32,000 bases of DNA from an uncultured Opitutales bacterium (GCA_934613415.1 CAKTSY010000002.1:406709-438708); one strand, 5' to 3'. Numbered from the stretch's first letter, positions 598 to 29,353 are shown. The notes: generated by a model from the letters alone, not told the origin. Numbers and translations: made by a program.

Positions 598-598
598 A

Positions 599-4238: not shown

Positions 4239-4253
4239 ATGCGCCGCGCGCTA

Positions 4254-7542: not shown

Positions 7543-7564
7543 TTTAAAAAAATTGGGTACACTT

Positions 7565-7603: not shown

Positions 7604-7720
7604 GCGCGCCAAATTTTGGAAAAAGGCACAAAAAGGCAAGTTTTTGAAAGGAACAACTATTTACAGCTTTGAAAATTTTTTGTACCATATTGCGAAAACA
7701 AAAATTCAAGAAAACAAACT

Positions 7721-8287: not shown

Positions 8288-8372
8288 TTTTTTTGCTTTT
8301 TACGAAACCTTTTTGTTTATTGGGTGTTTTATTGGGCATAAACCAATCCCAAAAAAATAAAAAGGTTTTTAT

Positions 8373-9344: not shown

Positions 9345-9378
9345 GCTTATTACCCAAAAGCATTAAAAAACATTCAAA

Positions 9379-9408
9379 GCGTGCAAAGTTTATTTGCGCG
9401 CTTTTTTT
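9379..9408 (+). terminator. Rho-independent terminator after the FGE-family gene (overlaps the 3' end of convergent ogt)
   Basis: GCGTGCAAA (9379-9387) / TTTGCGCGC (9393-9401) with one G-U pair, followed by T7 (9402-9408). Confidence 0.6.
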
Positions 9409-9923: not shown

Positions 9924-10171
9924 GCCCGAAATTTTTTTAATGGCAGGCACAATGGCAACAAAATTTTTATTTGTTGGTTTTACAAAAAATTTTTGTGTTA
10001 TTTCGCACAAACCCCAAACTTTTTAAGCTAAAAGCGAAAGTTTTTCGCAATTTTATGGATAGTTTTTTCCAAAAAAAAGCCACATGCAAAACTGCCAATA
10101 AAGCTGATAAATAGGCAGATTAATCGTTTTTTGTTGCAAATGGAAATTTTTAGCCCAAACTCTGGTCGTGT

Positions 10172-12550: not shown

Positions 12551-12576
12551 CATACAAAAGCGCAAAATACTATGCA

Positions 12577-12615
12577 AAGCGGCTCGGCCTTTAAAAGGGC
12601 AAAGCCGCTTTTTTG
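12577..12615 (+). terminator. Terminator hairpin between convergent genes
   Basis: AAAGCGGCT (12577-12585) / AGCCGCTTT (12603-12611), followed by a T-run to 12615. Confidence 0.55.
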
Positions 12616-12628
12616 CGTTTAGCTTGGG

Positions 12629-13147
12629 TTAGCCCATTGCTATGGTCAGCAAACTGTGGTAAAAATCGGCATACTCGCTTTCGCTTATTGGGCGTTGGGT
12701 GCTTAAAATTGCCATAGGGCACTTTGGCCCATTGCCGTAGCCTGGGTGGGCGTGCTTGTGCGGCGTTTCAAAAAAGCCGCAGCGTTTGTAAAAGCGCAGC
12801 CTTTTTGCCGAAATTTCGTCTACAACATAGTCTACTTCAAGCACAAAAATTTTGGGGCTGCCTGCCAAAACATCTTGCATAATTTTGCCGCCAATGCCGC
12901 AGTTTCGCATAGTGTCGTTTACTGCAAGGTGCTCTATATACACGCAGTTTTTAAAATCCCAAAACGACACAAACCCCAAAAGCGCGCGGTTTTGCGTATA
13001 GCAAAAAAGCGAAAATTTTTTGTCGGCTATTGCCTTTTGCAACTCGGCGTCTGTTCTTTGCTCGCAAATAGGGAAGCTTTTTTTGTAAAGCTCTAAAAAT
13101 TGCGGGTAAATTTGGTGCAGGGTGCTTTCTATCTTAATTTTTTGCAT
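12629..13147 (-). CDS. GNAT-family N-acetyltransferase
   Basis: 172 aa. Acetyl-CoA motif A: HLAVNDTMRNCGIGGKIMQDV (R-x-x-G-x-G). Confidence 0.8.
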   Translation of the reverse strand: MQKIKIESTLHQIYPQFLELYKKSFPICEQRTDAELQKAIADKKFSLFCYTQNRALLGFVSFWDFKNCVYIEHLAVNDTMRNCGIGGKIMQDVLAGSPKIFVLEVDYVVDEISAKRLRFYKRCGFFETPHKHAHPGYGNGPKCPMAILSTQRPISESEYADFYHSLLTIAMG

Positions 13148-13257
13148 GGAATGGAATATATATTCTTAATATCCGCAAAACTTGGTCAACAAGATTAAGC
13201 TAGTATGTTTGCCCAAAAAACCTTGCAAGAACTCGCATTTGCCCCTACGCTTTTTGC

Positions 13258-13926
13258 ATGAAAGCTATAATGTTTGCCTTGTCTTTTCTTGTGTATTTTT
13301 CGCTAAATGCCGCGCAATTTTTGGGGCAAAAGGGTGGCGAGTTTGAATTTTGCGAAACTTTAGAAATTGCCTATCCCGAAAATATGCCAGATTCCGAAAA
13401 GCCCGAATTTGCAAAAAAAGCCATAGCCCAAATAAATTCGCCTATTGTAAGGCAGCTTATTGTTTGGGCGGAAGGCGTAAAATGCGAAAGTTCAAAAAAT
13501 TTCACAAAAGATTACGGCAACTTGTCTGCCTGCGATATAATCGAAAAAAACTTTTCAATTTGCGTAGATAAAAAATTGCAAATCGCCACAGTGATTTTTC
13601 GCCACAAAAATAAGAACACCGCAAGTTTTATATGTTTTGACTTGGCAAGGGCTGCTGCTTTTCACTCAAAAAACGCATCTAACGAATGCCTAACAGCCCA
13701 GCTAGAGCTTACAAAAAAAGCCTACAAGCTTTTGGCAGAGCGCAAAAAACTTTTTAGCGAATTTAAACAGGCAAAGGCCGAAAACAATGCGCAAAAGGTT
13801 GCCGAGCTAGAAAAGAAATTGCGCCAAGAACCATTCTCGCGCGAAAAAACAAAACAAATAAAAGAACAATTTAAGACGTTTAAAAATGCGCCGCAATTTT
13901 GGCTGCTGCAAAATGCAAAGCCCTAG
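13258..13926 (+). CDS. Hypothetical secreted protein with a Lys/Glu-rich helical C-terminus
   Basis: Signal peptide MKAIMFALSFLVYFSLNAA. No family recognised. Its stop codon overlaps the stop of the convergent integrase fragment. Confidence 0.5.
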   Translation: MKAIMFALSFLVYFSLNAAQFLGQKGGEFEFCETLEIAYPENMPDSEKPEFAKKAIAQINSPIVRQLIVWAEGVKCESSKNFTKDYGNLSACDIIEKNFSICVDKKLQIATVIFRHKNKNTASFICFDLARAAAFHSKNASNECLTAQLELTKKAYKLLAERKKLFSEFKQAKAENNAQKVAELEKKLRQEPFSREKTKQIKEQFKTFKNAPQFWLLQNAKP

Positions 13927-14235
13927 TTAAAAAACTTTTCGGACTCAAAGCGCGAAATGTTGCGCATGTTAATGTAGCGACTGCATAAAAGCATTTGGTT
14001 GCTGTGCCCCATGTTTAGCTGTAGCCTTGGCAGGTCTTTAAAACGTTTGGCAAAAAAGCTGGCGTAGGTGTGGCGCAAAACGTCGGCCTGCCACGGCAAC
14101 GCTTTGCGGCTAAAACCGCTGTTTTGCCTTATGTTCTGCCAACGGCGTTCCCAGTTTTTCGGGCATATTTTGCCAAAACCTGTGCCACGCGTAAAAATCA
14201 CCCGCAAACCCTTTGTTTATCCCGTAATCTTCCAT
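13923..14235 (-). pseudogene. Tyrosine recombinase (phage integrase family), C-terminal fragment only
   Basis: ORF 13923-14207 reads ...CPKNWERRWQNIRQNSGF...WQADVLRHTYASFF...LNMGHSNQMLLCSRYINM, i.e. the catalytic box II region (LRHT / GHS / Y) only. A second frame, starting at an SD-preceded ATG at 14235-14233, overlaps it (MEDYGINKGFAGDFYAWHRFWQNMPEK...). About two thirds of a normal integrase is missing. Confidence 0.7.
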
Positions 14236-14305
14236 AATCTCCCCCTATATCCCGTTATTCAAACCTTCTGTCACTGATCATTGTGGAGCGGATTGGCGGC
14301 GAATG

Positions 14306-14341
14306 GGCAAAAAAAATTTCACACGGGTTCGTGTGAAATTT
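14306..14341 (-). terminator. Strong orphan terminator-like hairpin
   Basis: 12-bp perfect stem AAATTTCACACG (14314-14325) / CGTGTGAAATTT (14330-14341) with loop GGTT. The stem is followed by a T-run only on the minus strand (plus-strand A8, 14309-14316). No minus-strand gene lies upstream of it. Confidence 0.45.
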
Positions 14342-14539
14342 AAAACGCGGAGAGAGAGAGGGAATACACTGAAATTCACAAGTCGTTTATTACCAGCAAG
14401 CAAATTTTAACGGCAAGCGTCAGTTGCATTTAGTTGTTTCATTCTTATTTAAGTAATTGTTTAATGTAGTAAAAAAGAGTCTATAACTTGACGTTCAAAA
14501 AAAATCTGCTATTTTTGAGATTGCGATAAAGAAAGAGAG

Positions 14540-15493
14540 ATGGCATCTAAAGACCTAAATTTTCAGATAGAATTTTGCGCTGATTCAAAAGGATATTTTG
14601 ATAGAAAATGCCCTAAATGTGGATTGATTTTCGGAATAAAGTTAGCGGATTACAAATTACATAAAGGCAATATATTTTGCCCAATGTGTGGTTATTCGGA
14701 ATCTTACAATAATAAAATATGGTTTACAGATAGACAAATATCTGAGATGAATGATCGAATTCGCAAACAAGCTACAGAATGGATTCACGATCGATTTAAT
14801 GCTATTTTTAACAAATATCGGCATAATAGGAACGATATTATCAGTATATCGTATAAGCCAGAAAGACGTCCTATATTTAAAAATTATCCAATTTTACAAC
14901 CCAAAGAGTGGGATATAGAGATAAAATGTCAAAAATGCGGAAAGTCCTATAGTGTTATTGGGTCTGCTTTTTTCTGTCCGTTTTGTGGAGAAAACAATAT
15001 AGAAGATATCTTTGAAAAGTCACTTATTGTAATTCGCCATAAGTTAAATTTTGAAAAAATATTTTATCATGACCTAAATAATATGACAGGAAATGTCGCA
15101 ATTGATTTTTCCAGATCTATTTTGGAACATTGTATATCTGAAGTCGTTTCATGTTTTCAGAAATTTGCTGAAACAATATTAAAAAACTTCACTCAAGATC
15201 CTATACGTGTAAACGATTTTCAAATTATAAGAAGAGGGAATGAATTGTATGATAAATATACTGGGCATTCATATTTAGATTATATTTCCAAAGAAGAATT
15301 ACAATTTCTGGAGATTATGTTTAAACGTAGACACCTATTGGAACATAATATGGGAATTGTTGACGAAAAATATATGAATGGAGTCAATGATTTTTCGGTT
15401 AAAGTAGGGCAAAGACTTATTGTAAACAAACAAGAAGTATCAAGATTTATTGATATTATAGAAAAACTTGGATTGGGATTAAAAACTATATGA
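14540..15493 (+). CDS. Uncharacterised protein: two CxxC...CxxC zinc ribbons plus a helical C-terminal domain with an Rx4H (HEPN-like) motif
   Basis: 317 aa. Cysteines C24/C27/C47/C50 (CPKC...CPMC) and C130/C133/C146/C149 (CQKC...CPFC). The C-terminal ~165 aa are predicted helical, with FKRRHLLEHNMGIVDEKY (R264-x4-H269). A possible sigma70-like promoter is TTGACG (14488-14493), a 16-nt spacer, then TATTTT (14510-14515). Confidence 0.6.
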   Translation: MASKDLNFQIEFCADSKGYFDRKCPKCGLIFGIKLADYKLHKGNIFCPMCGYSESYNNKIWFTDRQISEMNDRIRKQATEWIHDRFNAIFNKYRHNRNDIISISYKPERRPIFKNYPILQPKEWDIEIKCQKCGKSYSVIGSAFFCPFCGENNIEDIFEKSLIVIRHKLNFEKIFYHDLNNMTGNVAIDFSRSILEHCISEVVSCFQKFAETILKNFTQDPIRVNDFQIIRRGNELYDKYTGHSYLDYISKEELQFLEIMFKRRHLLEHNMGIVDEKYMNGVNDFSVKVGQRLIVNKQEVSRFIDIIEKLGLGLKTI

Positions 15494-15620
15494 AGAGCAT
15501 ATAGCCAACTTTTTTACAAGTATAATTCCAGTCAATTTTATTAAAATAAAGAGAAGACTTGAAATATATCTTGTAAAGTTCTAATCTATTTAGGTTATGT
15601 AATATTGAAGGAGTTTGAGT

Positions 15621-16452
15621 ATGGCAAAAAAAGAACCAGTCGAATAGGTTAACATCACAACAAAAAGAAAATAAGGGTGTTATCGGTATTTTTGGAGATG
15701 AAGCAAAATCTCATGATAACTTAGTCAGTAGTGTATCAAGAATAGCCTTAAATAAGCTACAGAAGAAATATCCTACACTTTCTTTCCGCTACAGAACAAG
15801 CGTAAGTAAGTTGGAAATAAACAAAGCTTTACAAGAACTTGATAAGGATTTAGGGGGAACTTTGTTTGTACCAGATTCAAATATAAAACCCGACGGTGGA
15901 TTGATAGAAGTAAAAGACGATAATGGGTGTTGGCGAGTAGTTCTTGTTTCAGAGGCCAAACATCAAGGAAAAGATATAGAGAACATACAAAAAGGTATAA
16001 AAGTAGGGGTAAAAGATAACCAAGATTTTATGGTCGCAGGAAACGCGATAGAGCGTTCCCATAAGAATATATCTGAAATTGCTAATCTCATGCTTAAAGA
16101 AGCATATTTCCCTTATGTTCTCTTTTTGGAAGGTTCTAATTTTCTCACCGAAAATATTACCGTGAAAAGGCCAAATGGCGAAGAGTTGAAGATTATCTAT
16201 AATACAGGTTCTCTAAATAGATTAGATAGGCTCACATCCGCAAATTATGGAATGCCAATAAATAAGAATCTATGTAAAAACAAATTTGTAATATCAAATA
16301 ATCAAACTATTATGTTGCAAGCAGCTTCAATTTATACCGAAGGTAAAGGTGGACATTGGAATGAATCTAAAATGCTTCCAATTATGCTGGAAATAGCGGA
16401 AACTTCAATTAAGATGTTAGCCTCCGAATTGTTTAAACAACTCACAAAATAA
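15621..16452 (+). CDS. EcoRI/RsrI-family Type IIP restriction endonuclease; start codon out of frame with the body at an A7 run (as assembled)
   Basis: The body reads KPDGGLIEVKDDNGCWRVVLVSEAKHQGKD...MVAGNAIERSHKNISEIANLMLKEAYFPYVLFLEGSNFLTENI...LNRLDRLTSANYGMPINKNLC...IMLQAASIYT. It is colinear with R.EcoRI, including the PD...EAK motif and the AGNAIERSHKN recognition segment. Homology continues upstream of the ORF-track start, to codon 15622 (..QKKNQSNRLTSQQKENKGVIGIFGDEAKSH..YPTLSFRYR..). The ATG at 15621 has a GAAGGAG SD (15607-15613) but is one frame off. Confidence 0.85.
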
Positions 16453-16454
16453 AT

Positions 16455-17404
16455 ATGGCTATTCACAACAAGTCGCACAGTAATTCTGGTTTAATGGCAA
16501 TAAACCGAATGAATAAGAATAATATTAAGCATAAGTCTAGTGTTGATTTTAAATCTCCAGACCATACGAATTGTATTCTTCTCAACAAAGATTGTTTGGA
16601 ACTTCTAAGAACATTACCTAATGATTCTGTTCAATTGATATTGATTGACCCACCATATAATTTAGATTTGGCCGATTGGGATACTTATGACAACTATATG
16701 GAGTGGGCGTCGAAATGGATAAATGAATCTTATCGAGTTTTGTCAAAAAATGGAAGTATGGTTATTTTTGGAGGAACACAATTCCAAGATGATCGTAGAG
16801 GAGACTTAATTGAAATCATTTATTATTGTAGACATCATACGAAATGGCGTCTTGTAAATACGATTATTTGGTATTATAAAAATGGAATGTCCGCTCATAG
16901 ATATTTTGCAAATCGCCATGAAGAAATTGTTTGGTTCACAAAAACAGATAAGTATTACTTTGATTTAGATGCTGTTCGTCTAAAATATTCACCAAAAGAT
17001 TTGGAACTTGCATTGAAAGATAAACGATTAATCCCTGAAAATGTTATGAAGGGTAAGAATCCTACAAACGTATGGGAAATAGGGCGACTGAATGGTAATT
17101 CATTAGAACGAGTCGGCCATCCGACCCAAAAACCACTGGAGGTTATTAGAAGATTAATCAAAGCATTATCTTATCCCGATTCTGTTGTGTTAGATTTTTT
17201 TCAGGTAGCGGTACAACTGGTCGCGTATGTATCGAGGAAAAGCGAAACTGTATTATGTGTGATACCGATCCAGAATCTCAAAAATATTTTTGTAAACATA
17301 TTGAAAATATGAAAAAAACAAGTTTAGCAAATCCTTTTATTAGGGTAAATAATCTTGATGATTTCTTTTCTGATATAAAGAAACGTCAAGATTTTTATAA
17401 ATGA
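16455..17404 (+). CDS. Beta-class N6-adenine (or N4-cytosine) DNA methyltransferase, M.RsrI-like; frameshifted at a T7 run just before the SAM-binding motif (as assembled)
   Basis: SVQLILIDPPYNL (motif IV) comes first, then NRHEEIVWFTK and LERVGHPTQKP. At T7 (17195-17201) the ORF reads VLDFFQVAV... and stops at 17312. One extra T gives VLDFFSGSGTTGRVCIEEKRNCIMCDTDPES... (motif I FxGxG), ending at TGA 17402-17404. It starts 2 nt after the endonuclease stop. Confidence 0.85.
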
Positions 17405-17542
17405 TTAAATATGTTTTTAAAAGCATCGCCACTTTAAAATGTCCGAGACACTGTTGCAGGGCAGTTGCTGTTTTCGTGCCATTTGGTTTTATGTTGAACC
17501 CTGTTTTGCATATACTTATATTTTTGCGCGGGCGGATACAAG

Positions 17543-17580
17543 AAAAGGCAGATTCGCAACTTAGTGCAAATCTGCCTTTT
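17543..17580. terminator. Bidirectional terminator-like hairpin
   Basis: 12-bp perfect stem AAAAGGCAGATT (17543-17554) / AATCTGCCTTTT (17569-17580) with a 14-nt loop. The A and T runs form part of the stem ends. Confidence 0.6.
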
Positions 17581-17620
17581 ACGCTTAAAAACTGGCGGAG
17601 AGAACATTTGGCATAACACG

Positions 17621-18319: not shown

Positions 18320-20269
18320 ATGGAAAATAAAAAAGTCCGCGCTGTCGGATACGCCAGAGTAAGCACGAAAAACCAGCTAGTCGGCAGGGAATTTAACAGC
18401 ATTGACACGCAAAAGGCGATTATCGTCTACTATGCCCAAACCCATTCCGAAATCGAGCTTGTGCAAATATTCAGCGATCCTGGGCGGTCGGGTAAAAATA
18501 TGAAACGCCCCGGAATGCAGGCGATGATTGAACGCATCAAACAGGGCGATATTGATTGCGTTCTGGCATACAAGCTTGACCGCGTCAGCCGCGACGGCTT
18601 GGACTACCTAACACTTGAAAGCGAACTCAGGGGGTTGAACGTCTCTATTATATATACGAACGATGCCAATCCCGACGACACCCCGATGGGGCACATTCAA
18701 CGCCATATGATGGTAGGCTTTGCTCAATTTGAGCGGGAACAGAACGCCCAACGCGTGTGCGACAAGCATCTGGAACTTTTGAAACAAGGATATCACGCGG
18801 GCGGCTATCCTCCGCTGGGGTATAACTGCGGAGAGAAAAAGTGCACGCTTGTAATCGACCCACCAGCGGCGGCTCACGTCCACGAAATGTTCGCCTTGTG
18901 TGTGAAAGGTAAAACACCTGCCGAAATCGCCGCCATTATGCTGAAAAAATACGGAACAGTTCCCGAACACAAAACGCGAAACGGCAGAATCTACGGCGGG
19001 AACAGATATTGCGAAAACTTCGTTCGTAGGGTTTTGACAAATCCCGTCTACGCGGGCTACGTAAGCCGAAAGAAAACCGAACTTTTCGAGGGACTCCACG
19101 AAGCCATCATAAGCAGAGCGGATTGGGAGACCGCCTGCAAAGTGTTGGCTCCGAAACCACAAAAGTTGCGACCGCAAATTATGGCGTGTAATTCGCACAT
19201 TCTGAAAGGCAAACTGTTTTGCGGATGCGGGGCGGCGATGACCTGCGGCGCGTCGGGCAAGCGGCACAAAGACGGCAGCCTTTACCATTACTACATTTGC
19301 TCCGCAAAAAATCGGGAGCGAACCGCCCGAATGTGCAAAACGGGCATTGCCAAAAGCGTGTTGGAGTCGGTCGTGTTTTCGGCAATCGGCTACGCGGTAA
19401 CGAGGGGAATTTCGTTGAAGGAGATTCGCGAAAGCTCGCAAAAATACGAGAGCGAACTACTCAAAGAGCAGAAAGAACTTGCCAATTTAAAGCGCGACAA
19501 AGAACGAAAATTGCGCGAAAAGGTAAAGCTTTTTGGTGAAGTTGTGGGGAACGAAGTTCTGCGCAAGATGATGGCTGACGAGCTGCAAAAGCTTTCCGAA
19601 GAGGTTGAAAAACTTGCCGCACGACTCTCCGAAATTGCCAAGGAGACGGAGCTATTCAACCACGATACCGACTTGGGCGATCTTCAAACAAAGGCGGCGC
19701 TTGCCGATATGGATTCCGTCCAAAACGAATTAACTGCGGAGGAGAAAAAGGCGTTGGCACGAGGCGCCATTGAAAAGCTGACGTTAGCAGCGAAGACACA
19801 GAGCAAATACAAGCGCAAATTTTCGCTAAAAATCGTTCCAACGCGGGAATACCTGCCCCAACTTGGGGTTCTTGACATCGACTTTGAGGTAGATACTGCA
19901 AAAGGCCGCAGCGACTGGAAGATTGTCGCTCCGTTTGAAATCGCTTCCGAAAACTACGAGCAAAACCACAAGCCGCGCGAATATAAGCCGCAAAAACGGC
20001 ATTGGCTGCATACGGTTTTTGCTTGGCAGGCTAAGATTGAAAGAGGCGCAACAATGGCGGAAATTGCCGAACTTTCGGGTGTGAGTGTTCCGATGGTTTG
20101 CCGAAAATTGAAGCTTTTGGAACGGCTAAACGCCAAAGTGATTGAGAAAATCCTTTCAAGCAAGCTTGCCGAAACCAACGAGAGATTGTCGTTTAGAACC
20201 ATGGAAATGTTGTCAAAGCTGCCCAAAAGCGGACAGTTGTTGCGGTTTGCTGAGTTAATTCAAAAGTAG
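18320..20269 (+). CDS. Large serine recombinase (phage-integrase type) with an extra C-terminal HTH region
   Basis: AAGGAGG SD 7 nt upstream of the start. N-terminal resolvase catalytic motif VGYARVSTKNQ. Recombinase domain (GYPPLGYNCGEK...). Zinc ribbon (FCGCGAAM...YHYYICSAKNRERTARMC). Long coiled coil (ELLKEQKELANLKRDKERKLREKV...). Then 90 further residues containing ATMAEIAELSGVSVPMVCRKLKLLERLNAKVIEKI. Confidence 0.9.
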   Translation: MENKKVRAVGYARVSTKNQLVGREFNSIDTQKAIIVYYAQTHSEIELVQIFSDPGRSGKNMKRPGMQAMIERIKQGDIDCVLAYKLDRVSRDGLDYLTLESELRGLNVSIIYTNDANPDDTPMGHIQRHMMVGFAQFEREQNAQRVCDKHLELLKQGYHAGGYPPLGYNCGEKKCTLVIDPPAAAHVHEMFALCVKGKTPAEIAAIMLKKYGTVPEHKTRNGRIYGGNRYCENFVRRVLTNPVYAGYVSRKKTELFEGLHEAIISRADWETACKVLAPKPQKLRPQIMACNSHILKGKLFCGCGAAMTCGASGKRHKDGSLYHYYICSAKNRERTARMCKTGIAKSVLESVVFSAIGYAVTRGISLKEIRESSQKYESELLKEQKELANLKRDKERKLREKVKLFGEVVGNEVLRKMMADELQKLSEEVEKLAARLSEIAKETELFNHDTDLGDLQTKAALADMDSVQNELTAEEKKALARGAIEKLTLAAKTQSKYKRKFSLKIVPTREYLPQLGVLDIDFEVDTAKGRSDWKIVAPFEIASENYEQNHKPREYKPQKRHWLHTVFAWQAKIERGATMAEIAELSGVSVPMVCRKLKLLERLNAKVIEKILSSKLAETNERLSFRTMEMLSKLPKSGQLLRFAELIQK

Positions 20270-20442: not shown

Positions 20443-21699
20443 ATGAATATAGCGCGCCCCATATATCTTCAAAAGCTTATCGACCGCAAACAAAACGGAA
20501 TGATTAAGGTTATCACCGGAATGCGACGTTGTGGAAAATCTTTCCTTTTATTCTCCATTTTTCGCGAGCATTTAAAGCAAAGTGGCGTTGACGACGACCA
20601 CATAATAGCCGTTGACCTTGAAGACCGACGGAATAAGGATTTTCGCAATCCCGATACGCTTTTGGATTTCATCGACAAAAAGATGTCTAAAGATGGAGTC
20701 TATTATATATTGATAGACGAAGTCCAGATGGCGGGGGAATTTGAAGACGTTTTAAACAGTCTTTTGAAAAGACCGAATGCCGATGTTTATGTGACGGGCA
20801 GCAATGCGAAATTTCTTTCGAAAGACGTGATTACTGAATTTAGGGGGCGCGGCGACGAAGTGCGTATTCGCCCGTTGTCATTCGCCGAGTTTCGTTCCGC
20901 CAATCCGCAAGCGGACAGAACCGCCGCGCTGACGGAATACATGGCTTACGGCGGCTTGCCGCAAACGGTTTCGATGAAATCGCCGTCGCAGAAAGAAGAC
21001 TACTTGAAAGACTTGTTTTTGCACACCTACCTTGTGGATATAAAGGAGCGATACCGAATCAGAAACGATGAGGACTTGGAGGAATTGGTTCGAGTTGTCG
21101 CGTCGTCAATCGGCGGACTGACGAACACAACCAAGCTGCAAAACACGTTCAATTCGGAAAAGAAAAGTAAGATTTCAAACGCCACGATAAAGAATTATCT
21201 TGATATGTTGCAAGACGCCTTTCTTGTCGAAAAGTCTACACGCTACGACATAAAAGGGCGCAAGTATATCGGCACGCAATCGAAATATTTCTTCGAAGAC
21301 TTGGGTGTCCGCAACGCAGTAATAAACTTTCGACAGTCGGAGGAATCGTACCTAATGGAAAATATGATTTACAACGAATTGCGTATGCGCGGATATTCGG
21401 TCGATGTCGGGCAAGTCACCGTAAATATAAAAGATTCAAGCGGAACAAGCAAACGGAAGTATTTTGAGGTCGATTTTGTCTGCAATTCTGGCTTCAAACG
21501 CTACTACATTCAATCGGCACTGGAATTGTCCACGAAAGATAAAATCGAGCAGGAGTTGCGTTCTCTGCAAAATATAAACGACAGCTTCCAAAAAATGGTG
21601 ATTGTCGGCGGAATTGCTCCGACATACCAAAACGAAAACGGCATTATAATTATGAACGTTTTCGATTTTCTTTTGGGCGATTCAAAACTTTTTGGATAA
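20443..21699 (+). CDS. AAA-type ATPase of the AAA_14 / DUF4143 architecture
   Basis: Walker A: ITGMRRCGKSFLL. Walker B: YYILIDEVQ. The C-terminal part is typical of DUF4143-containing ATP-binding proteins (...FFEDLGVRNAV...EVDFV). Confidence 0.8.
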   Translation: MNIARPIYLQKLIDRKQNGMIKVITGMRRCGKSFLLFSIFREHLKQSGVDDDHIIAVDLEDRRNKDFRNPDTLLDFIDKKMSKDGVYYILIDEVQMAGEFEDVLNSLLKRPNADVYVTGSNAKFLSKDVITEFRGRGDEVRIRPLSFAEFRSANPQADRTAALTEYMAYGGLPQTVSMKSPSQKEDYLKDLFLHTYLVDIKERYRIRNDEDLEELVRVVASSIGGLTNTTKLQNTFNSEKKSKISNATIKNYLDMLQDAFLVEKSTRYDIKGRKYIGTQSKYFFEDLGVRNAVINFRQSEESYLMENMIYNELRMRGYSVDVGQVTVNIKDSSGTSKRKYFEVDFVCNSGFKRYYIQSALELSTKDKIEQELRSLQNINDSFQKMVIVGGIAPTYQNENGIIIMNVFDFLLGDSKLFG

Positions 21700-21710: not shown

Positions 21711-22589
21711 CTAATAGTTTGTAATTAAGACCTCAATAGATGCGCCTTTATTTAGGTTTTTGGAATGATAATTTGAATTTTTATAATTTGATTTCATATA
21801 ATGAACATTATATGGGCGTTCTGACAGCCAATCTTTTAATATACAATTGCATATTCCCTTGTGTTCAAGAATATTAGACAACGCAAACTTAATATTTGAA
21901 TTGTTCAATGAATCCAATATTCGCAAAAGATTGTATTCTTCTGCTTTGCCCCATCCCGTAAACCCACGTTTCCCATCGTTATATGTTCCAGATGTAATTA
22001 GATACGGCGGATCGCAATATACAAAATCGTTTTTAGACAAAGATGAAAAGTTAAATTCATCAAAATTATTACATGTGAAATAGATATTAGATGAATAAAG
22101 TTTATTTAAAAAAGACTTTAAATTTTTGCTCATTGCAGGATTGAATGAACTTCTTTCTTTGCCAAACGGAGTATTAAATTCATGTTTAGAATTAAATCGA
22201 ATTTGGTGATTAAACGAAAATGCCAAAAGAACAAACAAGTCCAATGGTGACTTTGTTCTGTTGTATTCGGACCTCAAAGCTTTAAACCCTAATTCATTTT
22301 TGTCCGAAAGTTCAAATTCAGAGATACGATTTTTTATATAGTCAAATATAGCTGGGATTTTACTATTTTTAAATTCATTATACAATGCAATTAAAAAAAT
22401 TAAATTATCATTGCATAATATTGTTTTGGCATCTACATTTATCGCCACGTTAGCTCCCCCGACAAATAAATCAACAAAAGTATCGATATTTTTGGGAAAC
22501 AATGGCAGTATTTGGGGTAACAGTTTGTATTTCCCTCCTATATAATTCAAGGGAGATTTTAAATAATCGCTTGCTGGAAATAGAAACAT
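21711..22589 (-). CDS. Dam-family (alpha-class, D12) DNA N6-adenine methyltransferase; orphan
   Basis: SPLNYIGGKYKLLPQI, FVDLFVGGANV (motif I), then FVYCDPPY (motif IV). I prefer the ATG at 22589, which has a GGTGG upstream; the ORF-track GTG at 22601 is an alternative. No endonuclease gene is adjacent. AT-rich (21/60 G+C at 22201-22260). Confidence 0.85.
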   Translation of the reverse strand: MFLFPASDYLKSPLNYIGGKYKLLPQILPLFPKNIDTFVDLFVGGANVAINVDAKTILCNDNLIFLIALYNEFKNSKIPAIFDYIKNRISEFELSDKNELGFKALRSEYNRTKSPLDLFVLLAFSFNHQIRFNSKHEFNTPFGKERSSFNPAMSKNLKSFLNKLYSSNIYFTCNNFDEFNFSSLSKNDFVYCDPPYLITSGTYNDGKRGFTGWGKAEEYNLLRILDSLNNSNIKFALSNILEHKGICNCILKDWLSERPYNVHYMKSNYKNSNYHSKNLNKGASIEVLITNY

Positions 22590-22717
22590 CGAAACACCCA
22601 CCTATTTACATCTATTTACGGTAGAAAAATTCAATAATTTCTCAAGACAAAATTACAAAAAACTATGTCTTTACCAAGGTACCATAACAAAATTCATAAT
22701 TGAAAGGCTTTCTTGAC

Positions 22718-23681: not shown

Positions 23682-25895
23682 TTAACTAACCTTTGTGAAA
23701 ATTAAATCGACCGAGCCGCCGCAGTTGCACGCATACATCGGCGCGACTTCCAGCGAATAGTAGAGTTCGGGAAGTCCGCGCTTGGGGTATATGTAATACG
23801 GCCTGTTGGCGGGAATCGCGGGAAGCTGCTCCTCGCAAACCGTGTCGTCGTTCGTCCTGAGTCGAAAGACGTTTTTCTGGATTTCGTCTTCGGCACTTGA
23901 CGTGTCGGGCAGCTCCGAATCGAAGCGCAGGACAATCTGCGAAAGCTCCAAGCCCGTCGGGAAGCCCTCCGCGTAGAGATACGTCGTGCTCGAAAACGAC
24001 GAAACCGCAATGTGCTTTGTATAACTTCCGTTTCCCTCGAACGGCAGCGACCACCCGTAAAACGCCAAGTCCCTGCTCGACGCGCCGTGGTTCTTCCAAA
24101 ATCCCGAATTCCCCGCGCCGTAGAAAAATCCCTCGAAGCCCTGCAAGCACGAGCAGGTAATCGAATGCAGATAAACCGCGTCGGTCGATTCCTCCTCGAG
24201 CTTGAAGTATGAGTTGTTCCCCTTATACAAATAGAGCTTGAACGCGCCCGACCATTTGAGCGTGAGTATCATTTCCACGGTTTGCCACTCGTCCTTTGGT
24301 AAAATCACGCCCGACTTGTCGATGTTGTCGGTCTTTGAAACTATCGTCCCTGCGCTTGCGGGCGCAATGCTGCCGAGCCTCAGCTGGACTTTCGTGATGT
24401 TCGGGTTTGTCGTCGGCAGGTAAATCGAAAACCTGATTTTGTGGAGCATTCCGTTGCCGCTAAAATACTTTGTGGGAAGCTCGTATTCGTGCGTCGCGTT
24501 GTAGGTGTCGGGCACGAGCGAAATTTTCAGCACATTCTTTTTGCCTCCGATTTCCGCGCCGCCTACGCCCTTCGAATGCGAACTATTGCGCGTAAACGAG
24601 CTTGCGAACGTGCTTCTGAAATAATTATAGCGCGGGTTCAGAATGCCTTTCGGTGGAAAATTGCCGTTTGCGAAATCCTCAATCGAGTAGTTGATTTTCG
24701 CGGTCTTGCCCTCGCTTGCCGTAAGCGGCAACAGGAGCGAATTCGAATACGCCATAACCTGCTTCAAGCCCTTCCAACCCAAGAACGAAGACGCGCCCGT
24801 GATGGAAAGTTCGTCGGGAATTACGCCCGAGGAGACAAGCTCGATGCCCTTGTATAGCTTGAAATTCCTGCCGTCGACGGTTAGCGCGATTCTGTCGCCG
24901 TATTCGATTGCCTTTGAAATCGCCGCCGTCCGATCGACCATTTCCGAACCGCCGCTTTCGCTTTCCTGATAGATGTAGCCGAGCTTCAGCGTATTGCCGT
25001 CTGCGGAAATTTCGGGCGTGAACATTCCGCTGTCTGCGTATGAAACGGCGTAGAGTTGCGTATAATATGCTGTCGGTTCGGGCAAATAAATTGTAAGGAA
25101 TGTCGAGCAATTTCCCGCCACGAAGTCGTCGCCGAGCGTTGCGCCGTATTCCGAGGGGACGGACAATGAAGTGTCAGACCATATTCCGCACTTCATATAC
25201 TTGAACAAGTCGCGCTTTTGCGGAACGTCGAGATTTGTTCGGGCTGCTGTCTTGTCGGCAATGTCGGAAAGATTGGAAGCCTTTTTGAGGTTCTTTGCCT
25301 CCTGCGCGTCGATTTGCGATTTGTTGTAAACTTCGCCTTTTGCGTAGACATCGAGGTTCTTTCTTGAAGCCGACTTGTCCGCCAAGTCCGAAAGGTTGGC
25401 GGATTTTTTCGAGAACACGGTGTCGGTGTAAACTTTGTCGTAGAACTGCTCCTGAAGTTCGACGGCGGGCGCGTTTTCTATGAGGTCGTTTTTTACGCGG
25501 CAGGCGGTCTGCAAAATCGTGACGATTCTGCCCGCCGTGTCGGAATATTCCACCTCCAAGAATGCGGTGATGTATTCGCTTTCCTGAACGGCGTTTTCGA
25601 TTGCCGTTGTGTTTAGCGGCAACACCACTTCCGCACCGCCGTTCGGATTCAAGGCATAGCCTGCCGCATATGTGAGTGATTTGGGATAGCCTTTAAAACG
25701 CGCAATCGCAACTCGCAGAAAATCCGTGCCGACTACAAGCGGCTTTACCTCGTAGAGCGATTCTTCGCCCTTTTGGAGAAGGAAGATTTCGAGCGGCTCG
25801 TTGTCGCCCTGCATAAATACGGGTGCGGACACGCTCCTGTCGGAAGTCAAACTCTGGACAAGCTTCTTGTTCTCAATGTCTATAAAAAGAGTCAT
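23682..25895 (-). CDS. Phage tail fibre / receptor-binding protein
   Basis: Two copies of the tail-fibre motif: SANLSDLADKSASRKNLDV (aa 165-183) and ASNLSDIADKTAARTNLDV (aa 206-224), at DNA 25224-25403. A large beta-rich C-terminal region follows. Confidence 0.7.
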   Translation of the reverse strand: MTLFIDIENKKLVQSLTSDRSVSAPVFMQGDNEPLEIFLLQKGEESLYEVKPLVVGTDFLRVAIARFKGYPKSLTYAAGYALNPNGGAEVVLPLNTTAIENAVQESEYITAFLEVEYSDTAGRIVTILQTACRVKNDLIENAPAVELQEQFYDKVYTDTVFSKKSANLSDLADKSASRKNLDVYAKGEVYNKSQIDAQEAKNLKKASNLSDIADKTAARTNLDVPQKRDLFKYMKCGIWSDTSLSVPSEYGATLGDDFVAGNCSTFLTIYLPEPTAYYTQLYAVSYADSGMFTPEISADGNTLKLGYIYQESESGGSEMVDRTAAISKAIEYGDRIALTVDGRNFKLYKGIELVSSGVIPDELSITGASSFLGWKGLKQVMAYSNSLLLPLTASEGKTAKINYSIEDFANGNFPPKGILNPRYNYFRSTFASSFTRNSSHSKGVGGAEIGGKKNVLKISLVPDTYNATHEYELPTKYFSGNGMLHKIRFSIYLPTTNPNITKVQLRLGSIAPASAGTIVSKTDNIDKSGVILPKDEWQTVEMILTLKWSGAFKLYLYKGNNSYFKLEEESTDAVYLHSITCSCLQGFEGFFYGAGNSGFWKNHGASSRDLAFYGWSLPFEGNGSYTKHIAVSSFSSTTYLYAEGFPTGLELSQIVLRFDSELPDTSSAEDEIQKNVFRLRTNDDTVCEEQLPAIPANRPYYIYPKRGLPELYYSLEVAPMYACNCGGSVDLIFTKVS

Positions 25896-25919
25896 ACAAG
25901 AAGCGGAGTTGTCAAATTA

Positions 25920-26020
25920 TCAGTTGAAAAAGCTTTTCGCTTCCGCGCGGGAAATGCCGCGCATATTGATGTAGCGCGAGCGAAGAAGCCAATAGGTAGT
26001 TAGAATTTGTCCCCGCTTTT
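25920..26020 (-). pseudogene. Short 3' remnant of a second, related tyrosine integrase gene
   Basis: The minus strand reads ...LLRSRYINMRGISRAEAKSFFN-stop (stop at 25922-25920). That is 13 of 18 identical to the C-terminus of the 13923-14207 fragment (RYINMRNISRFESEKFFN). Confidence 0.5.
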
Positions 26021-26028
26021 CTGTGCAC

Positions 26029-26063
26029 AAAAAAAACCGCCTTGCCTTGTGGTTTGGCGGTTT
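26029..26063 (-). terminator. Rho-independent terminator after the PEP-CTERM gene
   Basis: ACCGCC (26036-26041) / GGCGGT (26056-26061). On the minus strand it is followed by T8 (plus-strand A-run 26029-26036). Confidence 0.7.
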
Positions 26064-26082
26064 GAAAATTTAAAATTTTGCC

Positions 26083-27804
26083 TTACTTGCGGCGGCGATA
26101 GATTACAAAGCCCAAAGCCAACGCGCCGAAGATTGCCGCCCATTCGGCGGGTTCTGGGACGACGGTCAGCCAGTATTTGTTTGTCGCCGTGTCGAATGCC
26201 CACGAGAGTTTGGAACTGTCAACGCCCGAAATTTGCATATACGCCAACGCGTCGTCGGCAAGCGAATTGTGTTTGTTGATTGCAAGCGACTTTTCGGCGA
26301 AACCGCTGATTACGATTGTATCGCCGCCAACCAAGCCATAACCGGCGATGTCGGCAACGATGAATTCGTCGAACGTAAGAACCGAGCCGTTGCCGAGGTT
26401 GATTTCAAACTGCGCGGCTTCGCCCGTTGCGAACGCAATACCCCTCGCCGTCAGCGAAACGTTGTCGCCTATCGTAATTTTACCGTAGGAGCTTGAAGGC
26501 TTGTTGTCGTTGTACGACTTCGACACGAGGAACGCCGTCTTCTTCCAAGTGTTGTCGGCGTTGACAACCAGCAAGCCCGCGTTTGTGTCGGTATTTTTGC
26601 CGAACGCAAGGTGCGTGTCGATGTCGAGCGCATCGTTGAGTGTCATCGCATTGCCGAGCGCGAAATATTTGCCGCCCCTGATAACCAATTTGCCGCCTTT
26701 GTCGAGGACGATTTCTTCATAGTTTTTGCCGGCGGCACACGTTGCCGAATCCGTAAAGATGAGGAGAGATGCGCCGTTTTTGATTGTGAAAAGACCGCCG
26801 TTCGCGAACGTTTCGCCGACATTGCTACTATGATTGTAGAGAAGCATGGTGGAGTCCTTCGCGAGAGTGATAGGGGTGGCTATTGAACGGAAGGTTTGCG
26901 CGTTGATGGATGCTCCCTCGCCGATTGTTATCTTTGGCGTAATGCTGTCGTGTTTCGAAACATAAAAGTAGTCGTTTATATTGAGCGTACCGTTAACAAC
27001 CAAGTTGCTTGCCGTTGTTGCATCGCCGTTGTCGGGTGTGAGTTCAAGACGGGAGGTAGTGTACACGGCGTCCTTTCCGATGTTGAGCGTCGAATTTTGT
27101 ACTGTCGTTTCATTGGCGCTGAAGTTGCCGCCAATGTTTGCAACGGTGCCGTTGAACGCGGCGTTTCCCGAAGTCGTATACGTGCCGTTGAAGTTGTTTA
27201 TGCCGTTTGTGAAATAGGACGCGCCTGTAACGTTCATAACGCCGTCGACGGTGAAAACCGTATTCGCGTCATCGCTTTTGACGGTTACCGCTTCCGAACT
27301 CGTAACGGTAATGCCCCTGCCGATTTTAATCGACGCCGTGCTGCCCGAACGCCCCGTGCCTACGGGAGCGGTAAGAGTCCAACCGTTGGTAAAGTTTATC
27401 GCAGCATTTCCGCCGTTTTTAACGGAAAAATCCATCGCAAGCGGATAGGCGCTGAACCCTATTCCGTCGCCACTCGATAACGTCAGTGCCGCTCCGTCTT
27501 CGAAAAGCATATTCAGGTCGGTATAGCTTCCTCCGTCGTCACTTACCATGAAGCTTTTGAATGAATATTTCCCGTCCACAACGGTGTACGCCGGCGCGGT
27601 TGCAACGCCCGAATTGAGACCCTTCCAGAGAACCCCGTCGGAATCCGTCGGCGTTACGACATCACCCGAAGAGTTCTTGATGTCTGAGGAGAACTTCGTT
27701 GCGTTCTCTTCGTTAATGCCGCCCGACAGAAGATAGTCGGTTGCGAACGCCGAACTTGCGGCGAATGCCGCTGCCGATATAATTACAAGACAACTTGTTC
27801 TCAT
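26083..27804 (-). CDS. PEP-CTERM-anchored surface protein with a beta-helix / autotransporter-passenger-like repeat region
   Basis: Signal peptide MRTSCLVIISAAAFAASSAFA. Long Gly/Asn/Thr-rich beta-helical repeats. The C-terminus VVPEPAEWAAIFGALALGFVIYRRRK shows the PEP motif, a TM helix and a basic tail. Confidence 0.85.
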   Translation of the reverse strand: MRTSCLVIISAAAFAASSAFATDYLLSGGINEENATKFSSDIKNSSGDVVTPTDSDGVLWKGLNSGVATAPAYTVVDGKYSFKSFMVSDDGGSYTDLNMLFEDGAALTLSSGDGIGFSAYPLAMDFSVKNGGNAAINFTNGWTLTAPVGTGRSGSTASIKIGRGITVTSSEAVTVKSDDANTVFTVDGVMNVTGASYFTNGINNFNGTYTTSGNAAFNGTVANIGGNFSANETTVQNSTLNIGKDAVYTTSRLELTPDNGDATTASNLVVNGTLNINDYFYVSKHDSITPKITIGEGASINAQTFRSIATPITLAKDSTMLLYNHSSNVGETFANGGLFTIKNGASLLIFTDSATCAAGKNYEEIVLDKGGKLVIRGGKYFALGNAMTLNDALDIDTHLAFGKNTDTNAGLLVVNADNTWKKTAFLVSKSYNDNKPSSSYGKITIGDNVSLTARGIAFATGEAAQFEINLGNGSVLTFDEFIVADIAGYGLVGGDTIVISGFAEKSLAINKHNSLADDALAYMQISGVDSSKLSWAFDTATNKYWLTVVPEPAEWAAIFGALALGFVIYRRRK

Positions 27805-27984
27805 GATACCTACTTTCTATATTTTCAATAACTGGGATATAAAATTATCTGTTTATAAAGCTTTTTACAACTTTTCTGCGGTAAAAAAAGCTTGCAGTCA
27901 ACCATAAAAATTCCAACAGTTTTCAACAGTTCGTTCGGTACGGCAATCACGCTGTGCCGATTGGTTTATATGTTTATGGGGGAA

Positions 27985-28239
27985 ATGGTAAAATTTGTAA
28001 TATACGCGGGTGCGCTGCTTGCAGCCTGTATCCTTTCGGCGGAGGAAAGCGTCGGCGATACAATTTCGGCGAAGTTCGGCAATACGGTTTCGGGGGCGGC
28101 TCAGGCGAATGTATATTTCGAAGGCAACGGCAAATCGGGCGAGCTTTTGTGCATAGGACACTCGCAGACCAAACACGCTCCCGCTCCCGAACCATATGGC
28201 CGTTGCCATTGCGAAAAAGGAATATTGGTTGGGAAATGA
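27985..28239 (+). CDS. Possible small secreted protein (84 aa), divergent from the PEP-CTERM gene
   Basis: Internal start of ORF 27892-28239, with GGGGGAA immediately upstream. Begins MVKFVIYAGALLAACILSAEES (signal-peptide-like). No homology recognised, so it could be a chance ORF. Confidence 0.25.
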   Translation: MVKFVIYAGALLAACILSAEESVGDTISAKFGNTVSGAAQANVYFEGNGKSGELLCIGHSQTKHAPAPEPYGRCHCEKGILVGK

Positions 28240-28405
28240 CGATGATTTTGTAGATATTGACAAGGTGATTTCCAACATACAAAAGTATGAATCATTTCAA
28301 GATTCGGTAATATCCGACAAAACAAAATTATTTCAGACCAAATCAGTCGAAGGTTAAAACAATGAATCGAAAAAAAGCCTTTCGGGATTCCGAAAAGTTT
28401 TTCTT

Positions 28406-29353
28406 TTACCACTTTCTGATGGGGCATTTTTCGGAAGCGAGTTTAAGTTTTGCGGAGGAGCAGCCGCATTTTAGGCATTTGCCGAGTCCCATTCGGGCTG
28501 TGGGATACCAGAACTTGCAGTTATTGCAGATTGATTTTCTTCTTGTTAATTCGGCTTCGGCGGCAAGTTTGAAGCCCGATTTTGCCCAGTTGTAGGTTGC
28601 CTTTGTAAACTTTTGCACCATTTGAAATGTCGTAGGCAAAGTATCCAAAGTTTCCAAAATTGCCGATTTTTCAAACTCCAAATCGGTTCTGGTAAATTTC
28701 GCCGCCTCCGCAATGCGTCTGTCTTCAAAGCCGTTTTCTCCGCGTTCGGCGTAAAAGCATCTGCCGTTAAACAACGCAGCCTTGTAGGCGGGTTTGCCGT
28801 TTACGCAAAGGCTTTGCAACGTCCCCGCAAAGACATTGCAAACGCGCGAAAAAATCCCGCCCGATTTCGTCTGCCCCGAAATCAGCCATTCGTTCGGGTT
28901 GTCTGGATTGTATGAAACGCGGTAGAAATATTCAACATCGGGGAAAGTCAACTTTTGAATACTCCCGCCGTTTACAATGTAAAATCCGCCAGAACGCCCG
29001 CCGTAGACAATACGGTTTTTGAAAACAAACCCGACATCGGCGGAAACAAACTTTTCGGGAACGTTGCCGATTCCGTCAATCTTGTAGAGATAAAAACGCC
29101 TGTCGCTTTCGTGCCCACCCGCGATGAACGAAATTCTCCACCTGCCGTCTACAAGTTCGGCGGTGGGCGAACATTCCGTGGCGTCTTCTGGAAGCCCTGT
29201 ATAAACGCGTTCCCATTCGCCGTTTTCATAGTGGTGAAGCTTCCATTTGCCGCCGACTTTAAGACAGCAAAAAGCCTTCGGCGCATAGTATGGTGCATTA
29301 CCGCGAGCCACAAACGGCATATGCGAATTTATCCCTTTGTCGAATTCAAACAT
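28406..29353 (-). CDS. Hypothetical protein: beta-rich N-terminal domain plus a C-terminal cysteine zinc-ribbon tail
   Basis: The C-terminus ICNNCKFWYPTARMGLGKCLKCGCSSAKLKLASEKCPIRKW follows the pattern CxxC...CxxCGC...CP..KW. Only a 3-nt gap separates it from the upstream gene. Confidence 0.6.
   Translation of the reverse strand: MFEFDKGINSHMPFVARGNAPYYAPKAFCCLKVGGKWKLHHYENGEWERVYTGLPEDATECSPTAELVDGRWRISFIAGGHESDRRFYLYKIDGIGNVPEKFVSADVGFVFKNRIVYGGRSGGFYIVNGGSIQKLTFPDVEYFYRVSYNPDNPNEWLISGQTKSGGIFSRVCNVFAGTLQSLCVNGKPAYKAALFNGRCFYAERGENGFEDRRIAEAAKFTRTDLEFEKSAILETLDTLPTTFQMVQKFTKATYNWAKSGFKLAAEAELTRRKSICNNCKFWYPTARMGLGKCLKCGCSSAKLKLASEKCPIRKW

Follow-up and report, generated by a model that had tools for sequence, protein, structure and literature searches.

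PEP-CTERM proteins, the substrates of exosortases, are abundant at the surface of Gram-negative bacteria from the environment and the gut and are poorly understood. Why does a gene for such a protein lie between two genes of a prophage, and what might it do there? The question is raised by a 32,000-nucleotide (nt) stretch of DNA from an uncultured human-gut Opitutales bacterium (GCA_934613415.1 CAKTSY010000002.1:406709-438708; the window throughout this text), in which a segment at 25896-28405 separates a phage gene of 315 amino acids (aa) from a 737-aa fibre-like gene. The initial annotation, made from the sequence alone, read the segment as a self-contained, moron-like PEP-CTERM cassette inserted in the middle of a phage tail-fibre operon. 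Comparison with related contigs leads to a similar answer: a chromosomal surface-protein gene has been captured into a variable slot of the prophage, where the unit probably behaves as a moron that would display an extra surface protein on the lysogen.

The two genes bounding the segment identify the same slot in relatives. The 315-aa gene (28406-29353, minus strand), whose Cys-rich, Zn-ribbon-like C-terminus matches phrog_13558, is the last conserved phage gene before the slot; its full-length copies are 86-94% identical across about 25 related prophage contigs, with a single exception of 63% in the distant contig L024, and a collagen-like fibre gene always precedes it. The fibre-like gene (23682-25895, minus strand) forms the downstream flank and is 88-96% identical in relatives, where it occurs in either orientation with respect to the 315-aa gene. 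In total, 25 distinct contigs extend beyond the 315-aa gene and were classified by the content that follows. In three of them (L008, L012 and L020), 25 nt separate the stop of the 315-aa gene from the ATG of the fibre gene, with neither cassette nor recombinase between them, and the segment is therefore an insertion. Aligning related prophages was the check that had been proposed for the claim of an inserted cassette, and the claim passed it. The window-type arrangement recurs in L005, L021 and, in part, L010, as well as in L004, which lacks the end of the 315-aa gene. When the window is compared with L007, the variable interval spans 25990-28369.

The gene at the centre of the cassette (26083-27804, minus strand) encodes a protein of 573 aa that matches the PEP-CTERM model TIGR02595 with 17.9 bits. 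Its tail, VPEPAEWAAIFGALALGFVIYRRRK, consists of a C-terminal PEP motif, a hydrophobic helix (mean hydropathy of 1.7 over residues 553-569) and a basic cluster, as in PEP-CTERM proteins; the residues VPEPAEWAA.FGA.AL...RRR are invariant in 12 homologues, down to 36% identity, and the sorting tail appears to be under constraint. PEP-CTERM substrates cross the inner membrane and hence need an N-terminal signal peptide; by inspection and hydropathy (2.08 over residues 5-21), the N-terminus, MRTSCLVIISAAAFAASSAFA followed by TDY, resembles a Sec signal. The AlphaFold2 model of the protein (pLDDT 86, pTM 0.84) is built of beta strands almost throughout, and its best Foldseek matches in the PDB are the autotransporter passenger beta-helices of Hbp, Ag43 and TibA, with weak scores. 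The TIGR02595 match, the hydropathy profile and the structural model all agree with the earlier description of a signal-peptide, beta-helix, PEP-CTERM protein, which is the predicted architecture adopted here.

Where did this gene come from? A search of 5.8 billion proteins returned 18 relatives of the cargo (one 99% identical, one 34% and the others 67-75%). In all eight relatives whose contigs were read (72-75% full-length amino acid identity), the gene occupies one conserved, phage-free chromosomal locus with the order: three WbsX glycosyltransferase genes, a divergent GDSL-like gene of 246-250 aa, the PEP-CTERM gene, PNPOx and GGGtGRT. At the DNA level, window positions ~26013-28189 are 75-80% identical to three chromosomal loci, and the homology stops at 28189 in all three. 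The homology covers the gene, its terminator and 385 nt of upstream DNA, made up of the intergenic region and the first ~67 codons of the divergent gene; since it includes part of the neighbour, the cassette was captured from a chromosome. Further, the GDSL-like neighbour is complete in the chromosomes and cut short in the phage, so that the transfer ran from chromosome to phage. The alignments thus show both the chromosomal origin of the cassette and the direction of its transfer. In the proposed course of events, a 2.2-kilobase (kb) piece of an Opitutales chromosome (~26013-28189) would have been taken up by illegitimate recombination in the accessory slot between the 315-aa gene and the fibre-like gene, bringing with it the start of the GDSL-like gene, the divergent control region, the complete 573-aa gene and the gene's own terminator. 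The capture would have destroyed two prior occupants of the slot, reducing a candidate defence gene of the PD-(D/E)XK type to 53 codons and an Xer-like recombinase gene to 22 codons.

The anatomy of the cassette is consistent with this course of events. All four elements listed by the initial annotation (an integrase remnant, a terminator, the 573-aa gene and upstream DNA with a small divergent open reading frame) were found at their coordinates, with refinements. At the right-hand junction, donor homology fades at ~26013, followed by ~22 nt of filler (25991-26012), which align with no part of the chromosomal loci or of the recombinase gene, and then by the integrase remnant (25920-25988, minus strand). 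The remnant comprises the last 22 codons and the stop of an Xer-like tyrosine recombinase gene and encodes LLRSRYINMRGISRAEAKSFFN*; 20 of its 22 residues agree with positions 310-331 of the tyrosine recombinase (331 aa) that L007 encodes intact, the intact gene adjoins the upstream side of the fibre gene in relatives, and the same remnant is present in L004, L005 and L021. With 22 codons left, the catalytic domain (Phage_integrase, PF00589) is incomplete and the window holds no functional copy of this recombinase, nor were paired core sites of the recombinase module found in the window.

Between the filler and the cargo gene lies an intrinsic terminator (26026-26063, minus strand) that folds into a hairpin (26034-26063) followed by eight U residues (26026-26033). 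A terminator had been predicted at 26029-26063 and called strong; the terminator stands and its strength does not, as the fold is moderately stable (-14.7 kcal/mol over 65 nt, z = -1.5). The consensus terminator scanner did not report the hairpin because its loop is 13 nt long. In the chromosomal orthologues, a terminator occupies the equivalent position with a different stem sequence. On the other side of the gene, the ~600 nt described as upstream non-coding DNA contain a native divergent intergenic region (27805-27984), which is presumably the control region and is represented by conserved alignment blocks in nine phage-borne and chromosomal copies; the remainder is made up of two gene remnants and a terminator. 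The first remnant (27985-28189, plus strand) is the small, divergent, secreted open reading frame of the earlier description, which exists but does not form a functional gene: it is the truncated 5′ part (~67 codons) of the donor chromosome's GDSL-like gene, with 75% identity over 67 aa to residues 1-67 of a 246-aa chromosomal neighbour. The second (28190-28369, plus strand) is the 3′ part (53 codons; open reading frame 28196-28357) of a gene of the PD-(D/E)XK type, with 88% identity over 52 aa to residues 319-370 of the copy in L014. The intact gene (356-371 aa), which matches PF14281 and the PADLOC model PDC-S26, occupies the slot in L009, L014, L019 and L029 and was an earlier occupant of the window's slot. 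The palindromic, bidirectional terminator of the 315-aa gene (28370-28405) completes the segment; it is terminator-like on both strands (-12.6 kcal/mol, z = -2.3). Within the control region, a palindrome at ~27857-27895 (GCAAGCTTTTTTT ... AAAAAGCTT) is conserved in phage-borne and chromosomal copies, has an 11-nt insertion in its loop in the phage copies and may be a regulatory element.

The donor may have been a different organism from the present host. The GC content is 0.51 in the cassette, 0.55-0.56 at the orthologue loci and 0.43 in the host flank of the window; together with the ~75% identity, these values hint that the present host was not the donor, a conclusion kept from being firm by local variation in composition. 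A comparison of accessions for one genome that carries both the prophage and the chromosomal orthologue found no overlap.

Once captured, has the gene been kept, or does it simply await decay? Purifying selection on the phage-borne cargo is evident from codon-level comparison. The open reading frame is intact in all five phage-borne copies; pairwise ratios of nonsynonymous to synonymous substitution rates (dN/dS) among them are 0.13-0.37 at dS values of 0.02-0.05, estimates that are based on few substitutions. The L021 copy has lost 42 codons with its frame kept, and the L004 and L005 copies are intact in prophages whose fibre gene carries a +1 frameshift (L004 ~2930, L005 ~3605). Moreover, L031 is a prophage remnant among host genes (9918-12800) that retains the first 139 codons of the 315-aa gene, short fibre fragments and the cargo with ~290 nt of its upstream DNA; the cargo there is 98.8% identical in DNA to that of the window. 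Contig L010 (4694-5471) is another decayed carrier, in which the 3′ terminus of the 315-aa gene and the first part of the cassette lie beside a sugar transporter gene and an ion-channel gene.

These observations bear on an alternative in which the cassette is a neutral scar of illegitimate recombination in a decaying prophage, intact only because it is recent. The edges of the cassette, with two gene remnants and 22 nt of filler, look the part; the recombinase formerly present was destroyed, some carriers are damaged (the fibre frameshifts of L004 and L005, and the L031 remnant), and the low dS among phage copies means that there has been little time for selection to show. However, dN/dS is well below one in every pair of phage copies, the deletion in L021 preserves the reading frame, the cargo and its ~290 nt of upstream DNA survive in L031 next to deleted phage genes, and PEP-CTERM genes recur in the slot in other lineages. 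A neutral scar is accordingly judged unlikely.

The remaining question is what the captured gene would do for its carrier. In the proposed moron, the unit would be transcribed independently in the lysogen from its native upstream region, and terminators on both sides would insulate it from the phage late genes. The product would be exported by the Sec pathway and its PEP-CTERM tail recognised by a host exosortase, so that the lysogen would display, in addition, a diverged variant (~75% identical) of a conserved surface protein with an adhesin-like beta-helix. The benefit might be a remodelled surface for adhesion or aggregation, or resistance to other phages. In structure, the unit is self-contained, with its native upstream region, its own terminator and the terminator of the 315-aa gene upstream; the moron-like description is therefore supported at this level, and the compositional contrast expected of a moron is not seen, as the GC content of the cassette (0.508) does not differ from that of the flanking phage genes (0.516-0.520).

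Several results count against the proposed moron. In addition to the matching GC content, GC at third codon positions is 0.64 in the cassette and 0.54-0.68 in the flanking genes. The promoter is placed in the upstream region from its conservation only, because a scan found no sigma-70 consensus on the strand of the cargo gene. The TIGR02595 score lies just over the curated cut-off of 16 bits, and Pfam PF07589 has no match to the cargo at E <= 0.01. A heuristic scan of 625 kb of loci, which had little power, yielded no exosortase candidate; PEP-CTERM proteins do co-occur with EpsH-type exosortases in Verrucomicrobia, for example in Akkermansia (PMC4960237). The dN/dS estimates draw on few substitutions, as stated above. 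Furthermore, the cassette lies between gene fragments and filler like an accidental product of recombination, and the two terminators between the 315-aa gene and the fibre gene may impair fibre expression and phage viability.

Could the protein instead belong to the virion, as an accessory component of the tail fibre expressed with the late genes? Its gene is on the same strand as the fibre-like genes and lies between them, tailspikes are commonly beta-helical, and two of the weak Foldseek matches are tailspikes (E > 1). Yet a Sec signal and a C-terminal membrane anchor or sorting tail are unexpected in a virion protein, the protein has no PHROG match, its orthologues are chromosomal and have no phage neighbours, related phages do without the cargo, and terminators stand on both sides of it. 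A role in the virion is very improbable on this evidence.

A further proposal is that the cargo acts as an anti-phage or superinfection-exclusion factor, a variant surface protein that masks, replaces or decoys a receptor and so protects the lysogen. Such a factor would be one particular form of the moron and not a rival to it. The slot and the adjoining arm are filled with candidate defence genes, the cassette displaced one such gene (the PD-(D/E)XK type), and the phage copy represents an allele of a conserved surface protein that has diverged to ~75% identity; a preprint on gut Bacteroides reports that phase-variable surface structures alter phage susceptibility (bioRxiv 10.1101/521070). Against this, the 573-aa protein has no PADLOC match, its chromosomal orthologues adjoin glycosyltransferase genes rather than defence genes, and nothing links it to any phage receptor, which leaves the neighbourhood of defence genes as the sole support. 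The position of the orthologue beside WbsX genes and the adhesin-like fold would speak for adhesion, aggregation or the surface coat as the field of action, and the candidate defence genes in the same slot would speak for exclusion. Exclusion as the specific function is regarded as doubtful, and the broader proposal of a captured moron with a surface-displayed product is retained.

The whole argument presupposes that the region is a prophage. The minus-strand gene run at 22.7-32 kb comprises a 171-aa gene, a 580-aa gene with collagen repeats, a 112-aa gene, the 315-aa gene, the interval, the 737-aa gene and genes of 86, 217 and 94 aa. Suppose that the flanking 'fibre' genes were ordinary chromosomal genes and the region not a mobile element. 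The likeness of the 737-aa protein to phage tail fibres is indeed confined to short repeats of ~30 aa (residues ~155-227), which also account for its only match among GenBank phages, and the 9.3-kb phage arm has no nucleotide match among those phages. But genes for a head maturation protease, a major head protein and a tape measure protein lie directly upstream of the same gene run in related contigs (PHROG matches in L006), a profile search matched the 580-aa collagen-repeat protein to many tail-fibre PHROGs, and the search with the 315-aa protein returned an IMG/VR viral contig, besides three Opitutales genomes and 21 human-gut metagenome contigs. A large serine recombinase gene (18320-20269) adjoins the region and, with an AAA/DUF4143 gene and a Dam methylase gene, leads up to the phage genes. 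Positions 1-13926 of the window hold host genes, so the element is integrated in the chromosome, with the attributes of a tailed prophage. Contigs of the host locus often end ~260-290 nt past a 222-aa host gene, which suggests a strain-variable insertion, and L051 carries other content behind a homologous serine recombinase at the same chromosomal site. A non-mobile region is hardly credible in the face of this evidence, and the head and tape-measure genes together with the IMG/VR relative support the initial annotation in assigning the flanks to a phage. No tRNA gene that could serve as attachment site is present in the window, and a search for an empty integration site with the 222-aa host gene found none, just contigs ending right behind the gene.

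Other features of the element were recorded alongside. The fibre-like protein exists in a 737-aa form (window 23682-25895) and a 766-aa form (L007 10001-12301); the difference maps to the region of the ~30-aa 'NLSDLADK...NL' fibre repeats, which are its sole likeness to proteins of cultured phages. Candidate defence genes crowd the prophage arm that runs from the 315-aa gene to the end of the element. Candidates in the window lie at 20443-21699 (plus strand), 21711-22601 (minus strand), 14540-15493 (plus strand) and 15811-17312 (plus strand), with further ones at L007 13292-14969 and L014 10998-12113. The types found are AAA/DUF4143 (PDC-S01, 394 bits), Dam, a PDC-M14A-like gene and an EcoRI-type restriction-modification pair, as well as a PDC-M30/M41 pair and the PD-(D/E)XK gene matching PDC-S26. 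A 60-nt, hairpin-containing sequence upstream of the serine recombinase (17543-17602) is 98% identical to L031 9521-9580, ~340 nt before the prophage remnant there, and may represent a repeat element or belong to an attachment region.

The slot itself differs widely among relatives. In ten contigs (L009, L013, L014, L016, L018, L019, L022, L028, L029 and L030), the block of the fibre, 86-, 217- and 94-aa genes is inverted so that the 94-aa gene converges on the 315-aa gene, and four of these have the intact PD-(D/E)XK gene in between. In L007 (a 1564-aa pentapeptide-repeat protein), L011 (266 aa), L025 (425 aa), L026 and L027, a different PEP-CTERM gene converges on the 315-aa gene; L015 and L023 have other cargo after it, and L024, with its 63% identical 315-aa gene and short downstream flank, was left unclassed. 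Overall, six other PEP-CTERM genes of 266 to 1564 aa occupy the same accessory region of related prophages. Five of the six abut the terminator of the 315-aa gene, convergent with that gene, and the sixth (614 aa) lies at the distal end of the inverted block in L028; the tails of all six are near-identical (VPEPxTxAAIFGALALAFAAYRRRK). With candidate defence genes, other PEP-CTERM genes and the recombinase module among its contents, the junction is a hypervariable accessory slot with recurring PEP-CTERM cargo. The placement of the cassette in the middle of a tail-fibre operon thus holds insofar as it lies between fibre genes, not in the sense of a simple operon interior. Because related prophages carry other such genes at the same spot, this phage family probably remodels the surface of its hosts.

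In relatives, breakpoints cluster at the palindromic terminator that follows the 315-aa gene; homology with L007 ends there, and the palindrome moves with the inverted block in L028. The breakpoints of the block inversion are stop codons and a ~36-nt palindromic terminator, and half of the terminator palindrome lies 3′ of the window's own 94-aa gene (~22702-22717), which suggests that the window's block was once inverted. An active switch of the G-segment type was considered for the fibre block and set aside: with breakpoints at stop codons and a palindromic terminator, the inversions were treated as evolutionary rearrangements, and a search of the block ends for inverted repeats gave none that convinced. 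In the two direct-adjacency relatives that were checked, a 196-aa serine recombinase gene converges on the end of the fibre block (L008 14152-14742 and L020 7270-7860, both minus strand); its product matches the NCBIfam 'master DNA invertase Mpi family' with 274.5 bits (cut-off of 272).

What was the recombinase whose last 22 codons remain in the window? The intact 331-aa protein is Xer-like: it matches models of XerA, XerC and integron integrases, all well under their cut-offs, and the XerA structure 5hxy in the PDB with E = 6e-9. In every case, two inverted, palindromic 19-bp sites, ATCGTATT-NNN-AATACGAT, lie upstream of the recombinase gene, with 165-178 bp from the start of one to the start of the other; the proximal site directly adjoins the ATG of the recombinase gene and the distal one marks the start of the divergent cargo. 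Each module has these two core sites only, both beside the recombinase gene. The central triplets occur in six variants (ACA/TGT, ATA/TAT, AAG/CTT, TAA/TTA, TAG/CTA and GAT/ATC) and are reverse-complementary between partners in every case, and in distant copies of the module the site arms co-vary (CG to GG/CC). Such matching, co-varying sites are the pattern expected of partner sites of a tyrosine recombinase in inverted orientation. Site pairs lie at L007 8797-8982, L044 7150-7346, L051 5180-5365 and L052 5771-5967, and module sites are also present in L011, L013-L016, L018, L023, L025, L028, L030 and L047-L049. A recombinase beside a short segment with inverted repeats has the structure of an inverton. 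The flipped state of the inter-site segment was found in none of the 16 contigs with both sites, a contig-level comparison of low power, nor in the viral_contigs collection, which includes one relevant contig only; with one orientation throughout the 16 contigs, an inverton is unconfirmed. The core sites may serve as an operator. An integron was rejected, given a TIGR02249 score of 40.5 bits (cut-off of 265) and no site at the far end of the cargo.

The module is found at no fewer than three phage-free chromosomal sites, as well as in the fibre-proximal slot of the prophage family. The chromosomal modules consist of the recombinase, its sites and a pentapeptide-repeat PEP-CTERM gene, usually with a small variable gene before it. 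Of the three sites, one is flanked by MgtE and a prepilin-like gene (L044-L048), another by RpiB and a GH97 gene (L052), and the third is that of the window's left flank (L051). In L044 and L048, shared flanks are 98-99% identical, and the identity ends at the outer edge of the distal site. The L051 locus comprises the 222-aa host gene, an intact recombinase with its two sites, a pair of pentapeptide-repeat genes, of which the one examined encodes a PEP-CTERM tail, and a serine recombinase that shares 94% identity with that of the window. The window itself retains a C-terminal remnant of a second, chromosomal recombinase (13923-14207, minus strand; 80% identical to that of L051), which adjoins the 222-aa host gene; the rest of the module there has given way to a low-GC (0.33) EcoRI-type restriction-modification island (14172-17594), which includes the PDC-M14A-like gene. 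It is possible, and is put forward tentatively, that the 22-codon remnant is the trace of an undescribed exosortase-substrate module, an inversion switch or cassette-exchange platform that would vary the PEP-CTERM coat and that the phage would carry to reprogramme the surface of the lysogen. The divergent cargo of the module usually ends with a gene for a PEP-CTERM protein, in most cases one with pentapeptide repeats and a hypervariable N-terminal part.

Two further observations concern the genes beside the module. The pentapeptide-repeat PEP-CTERM family has 835 matches at E < 1e-10 (P0019-P0138; L044-L048, L051 and L052); the N-terminal repeats are 34-50% identical, the C-terminal ~200 aa and sorting tail of the closer members are near-identical, and a member adjoins the Xer-like recombinase in every chromosomal locus inspected. 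In addition, a gene of 308-324 aa lies between the distal site and the pentapeptide-repeat PEP-CTERM gene (L007 7847-8821, minus strand; L028 15412-16338, plus strand), in two prophages; its match to the CAP12/Pycsar TIR domain is weak and below threshold (E = 0.001), and PADLOC returned nothing for it.

Is phage-borne cargo of this kind already described? No homologue of the cargo or of the conserved pentapeptide-repeat C-terminus was found in 50,697 GenBank phage records, and the searchable full-text literature that pairs PEP-CTERM with prophage contains no PEP-CTERM cargo of a tailed phage, which matches the initial annotation's statement that none was known. The closest case in the literature is a PEP-CTERM domain protein in a Dehalococcoides integrative element that has features of filamentous or budding viruses. 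If the proposed moron is correct, the capture, retention and exchange of such genes by temperate phages would add exosortase substrates to the cargo of lysogenic conversion. The case is unusually clean, as the sequence itself reveals the donor locus, the junctions, the direction of transfer and signs of selection, and it implicates phages in driving surface variation among gut Verrucomicrobiota, for which there is almost no phage biology. If the module proves to be a switch, it would constitute a new phase-variation system for PEP-CTERM surface proteins.

Among known systems, the unit is to be compared first with the morons of lambdoid and HK97-like prophages, such as lambda lom and bor (Juhala/Hendrix-type definitions). 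Like these, it adds a gene between two that are neighbours in relatives, has its own control region and terminator, lies in a position proximal to tail-fibre and integration genes, and encodes a protein of the envelope or surface from which the lysogen presumably benefits. Unlike these, the predicted cargo would need a host exosortase, its source locus can be identified down to a truncated neighbour, and its composition equals that of its flanks. In Staphylococcus, the surface protein SasX is believed to be transferred by a prophage; it is sortase-anchored and is thought to promote colonisation. SasX exemplifies the closest functional counterpart of the predicted cargo, a surface protein that is encoded by a prophage and whose display would depend on a C-terminal sorting enzyme of the host. 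The present system differs from SasX in its Gram-negative host, in using PEP-CTERM and exosortase rather than LPXTG and sortase, and in having at least seven alternative cargo genes in the region.

The closest relatives by descent are the Opitutales chromosomal orthologues (P0002-P0017; L001-L003, L039-L043), which are 72-75% identical and share the signal peptide, the beta-helix, the near-invariant PEP-CTERM tail, the upstream region and the position of the terminator; they differ in their WbsX locus, their complete GDSL-like gene, the absence of phage genes and the GC content of their surroundings (55-56% versus 43%). The slot resembles the accessory and defence-gene hot spots of temperate phages such as P2 and P4, in that unrelated accessory and defence genes interchange at a fixed position between close relatives, and differs from them in its exosortase substrates, its recombinase module and an adjacent fibre block that occurs in both orientations. 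The module is to be compared with site-specific inversion switches run by a local Xer-like or tyrosine recombinase beside surface-protein genes, for example in Mycoplasma agalactiae (Xer1/Vpma; PMC2268961), and with the invertible promoters of Bacteroides fragilis (PMC4747536). The module shares with them a recombinase beside variable surface genes and inverted sites around a segment of ~150-160 bp, with central bases that always agree between the two sites, as is required of recombining partners; in contrast to them, its flipped state was seen in 0 of 16 contigs, its cargo is PEP-CTERM, it is both chromosomal and prophage-borne, and it is dead in the window. The moron as such is thus a known kind of thing, whereas the recombinase module could prove to be new.

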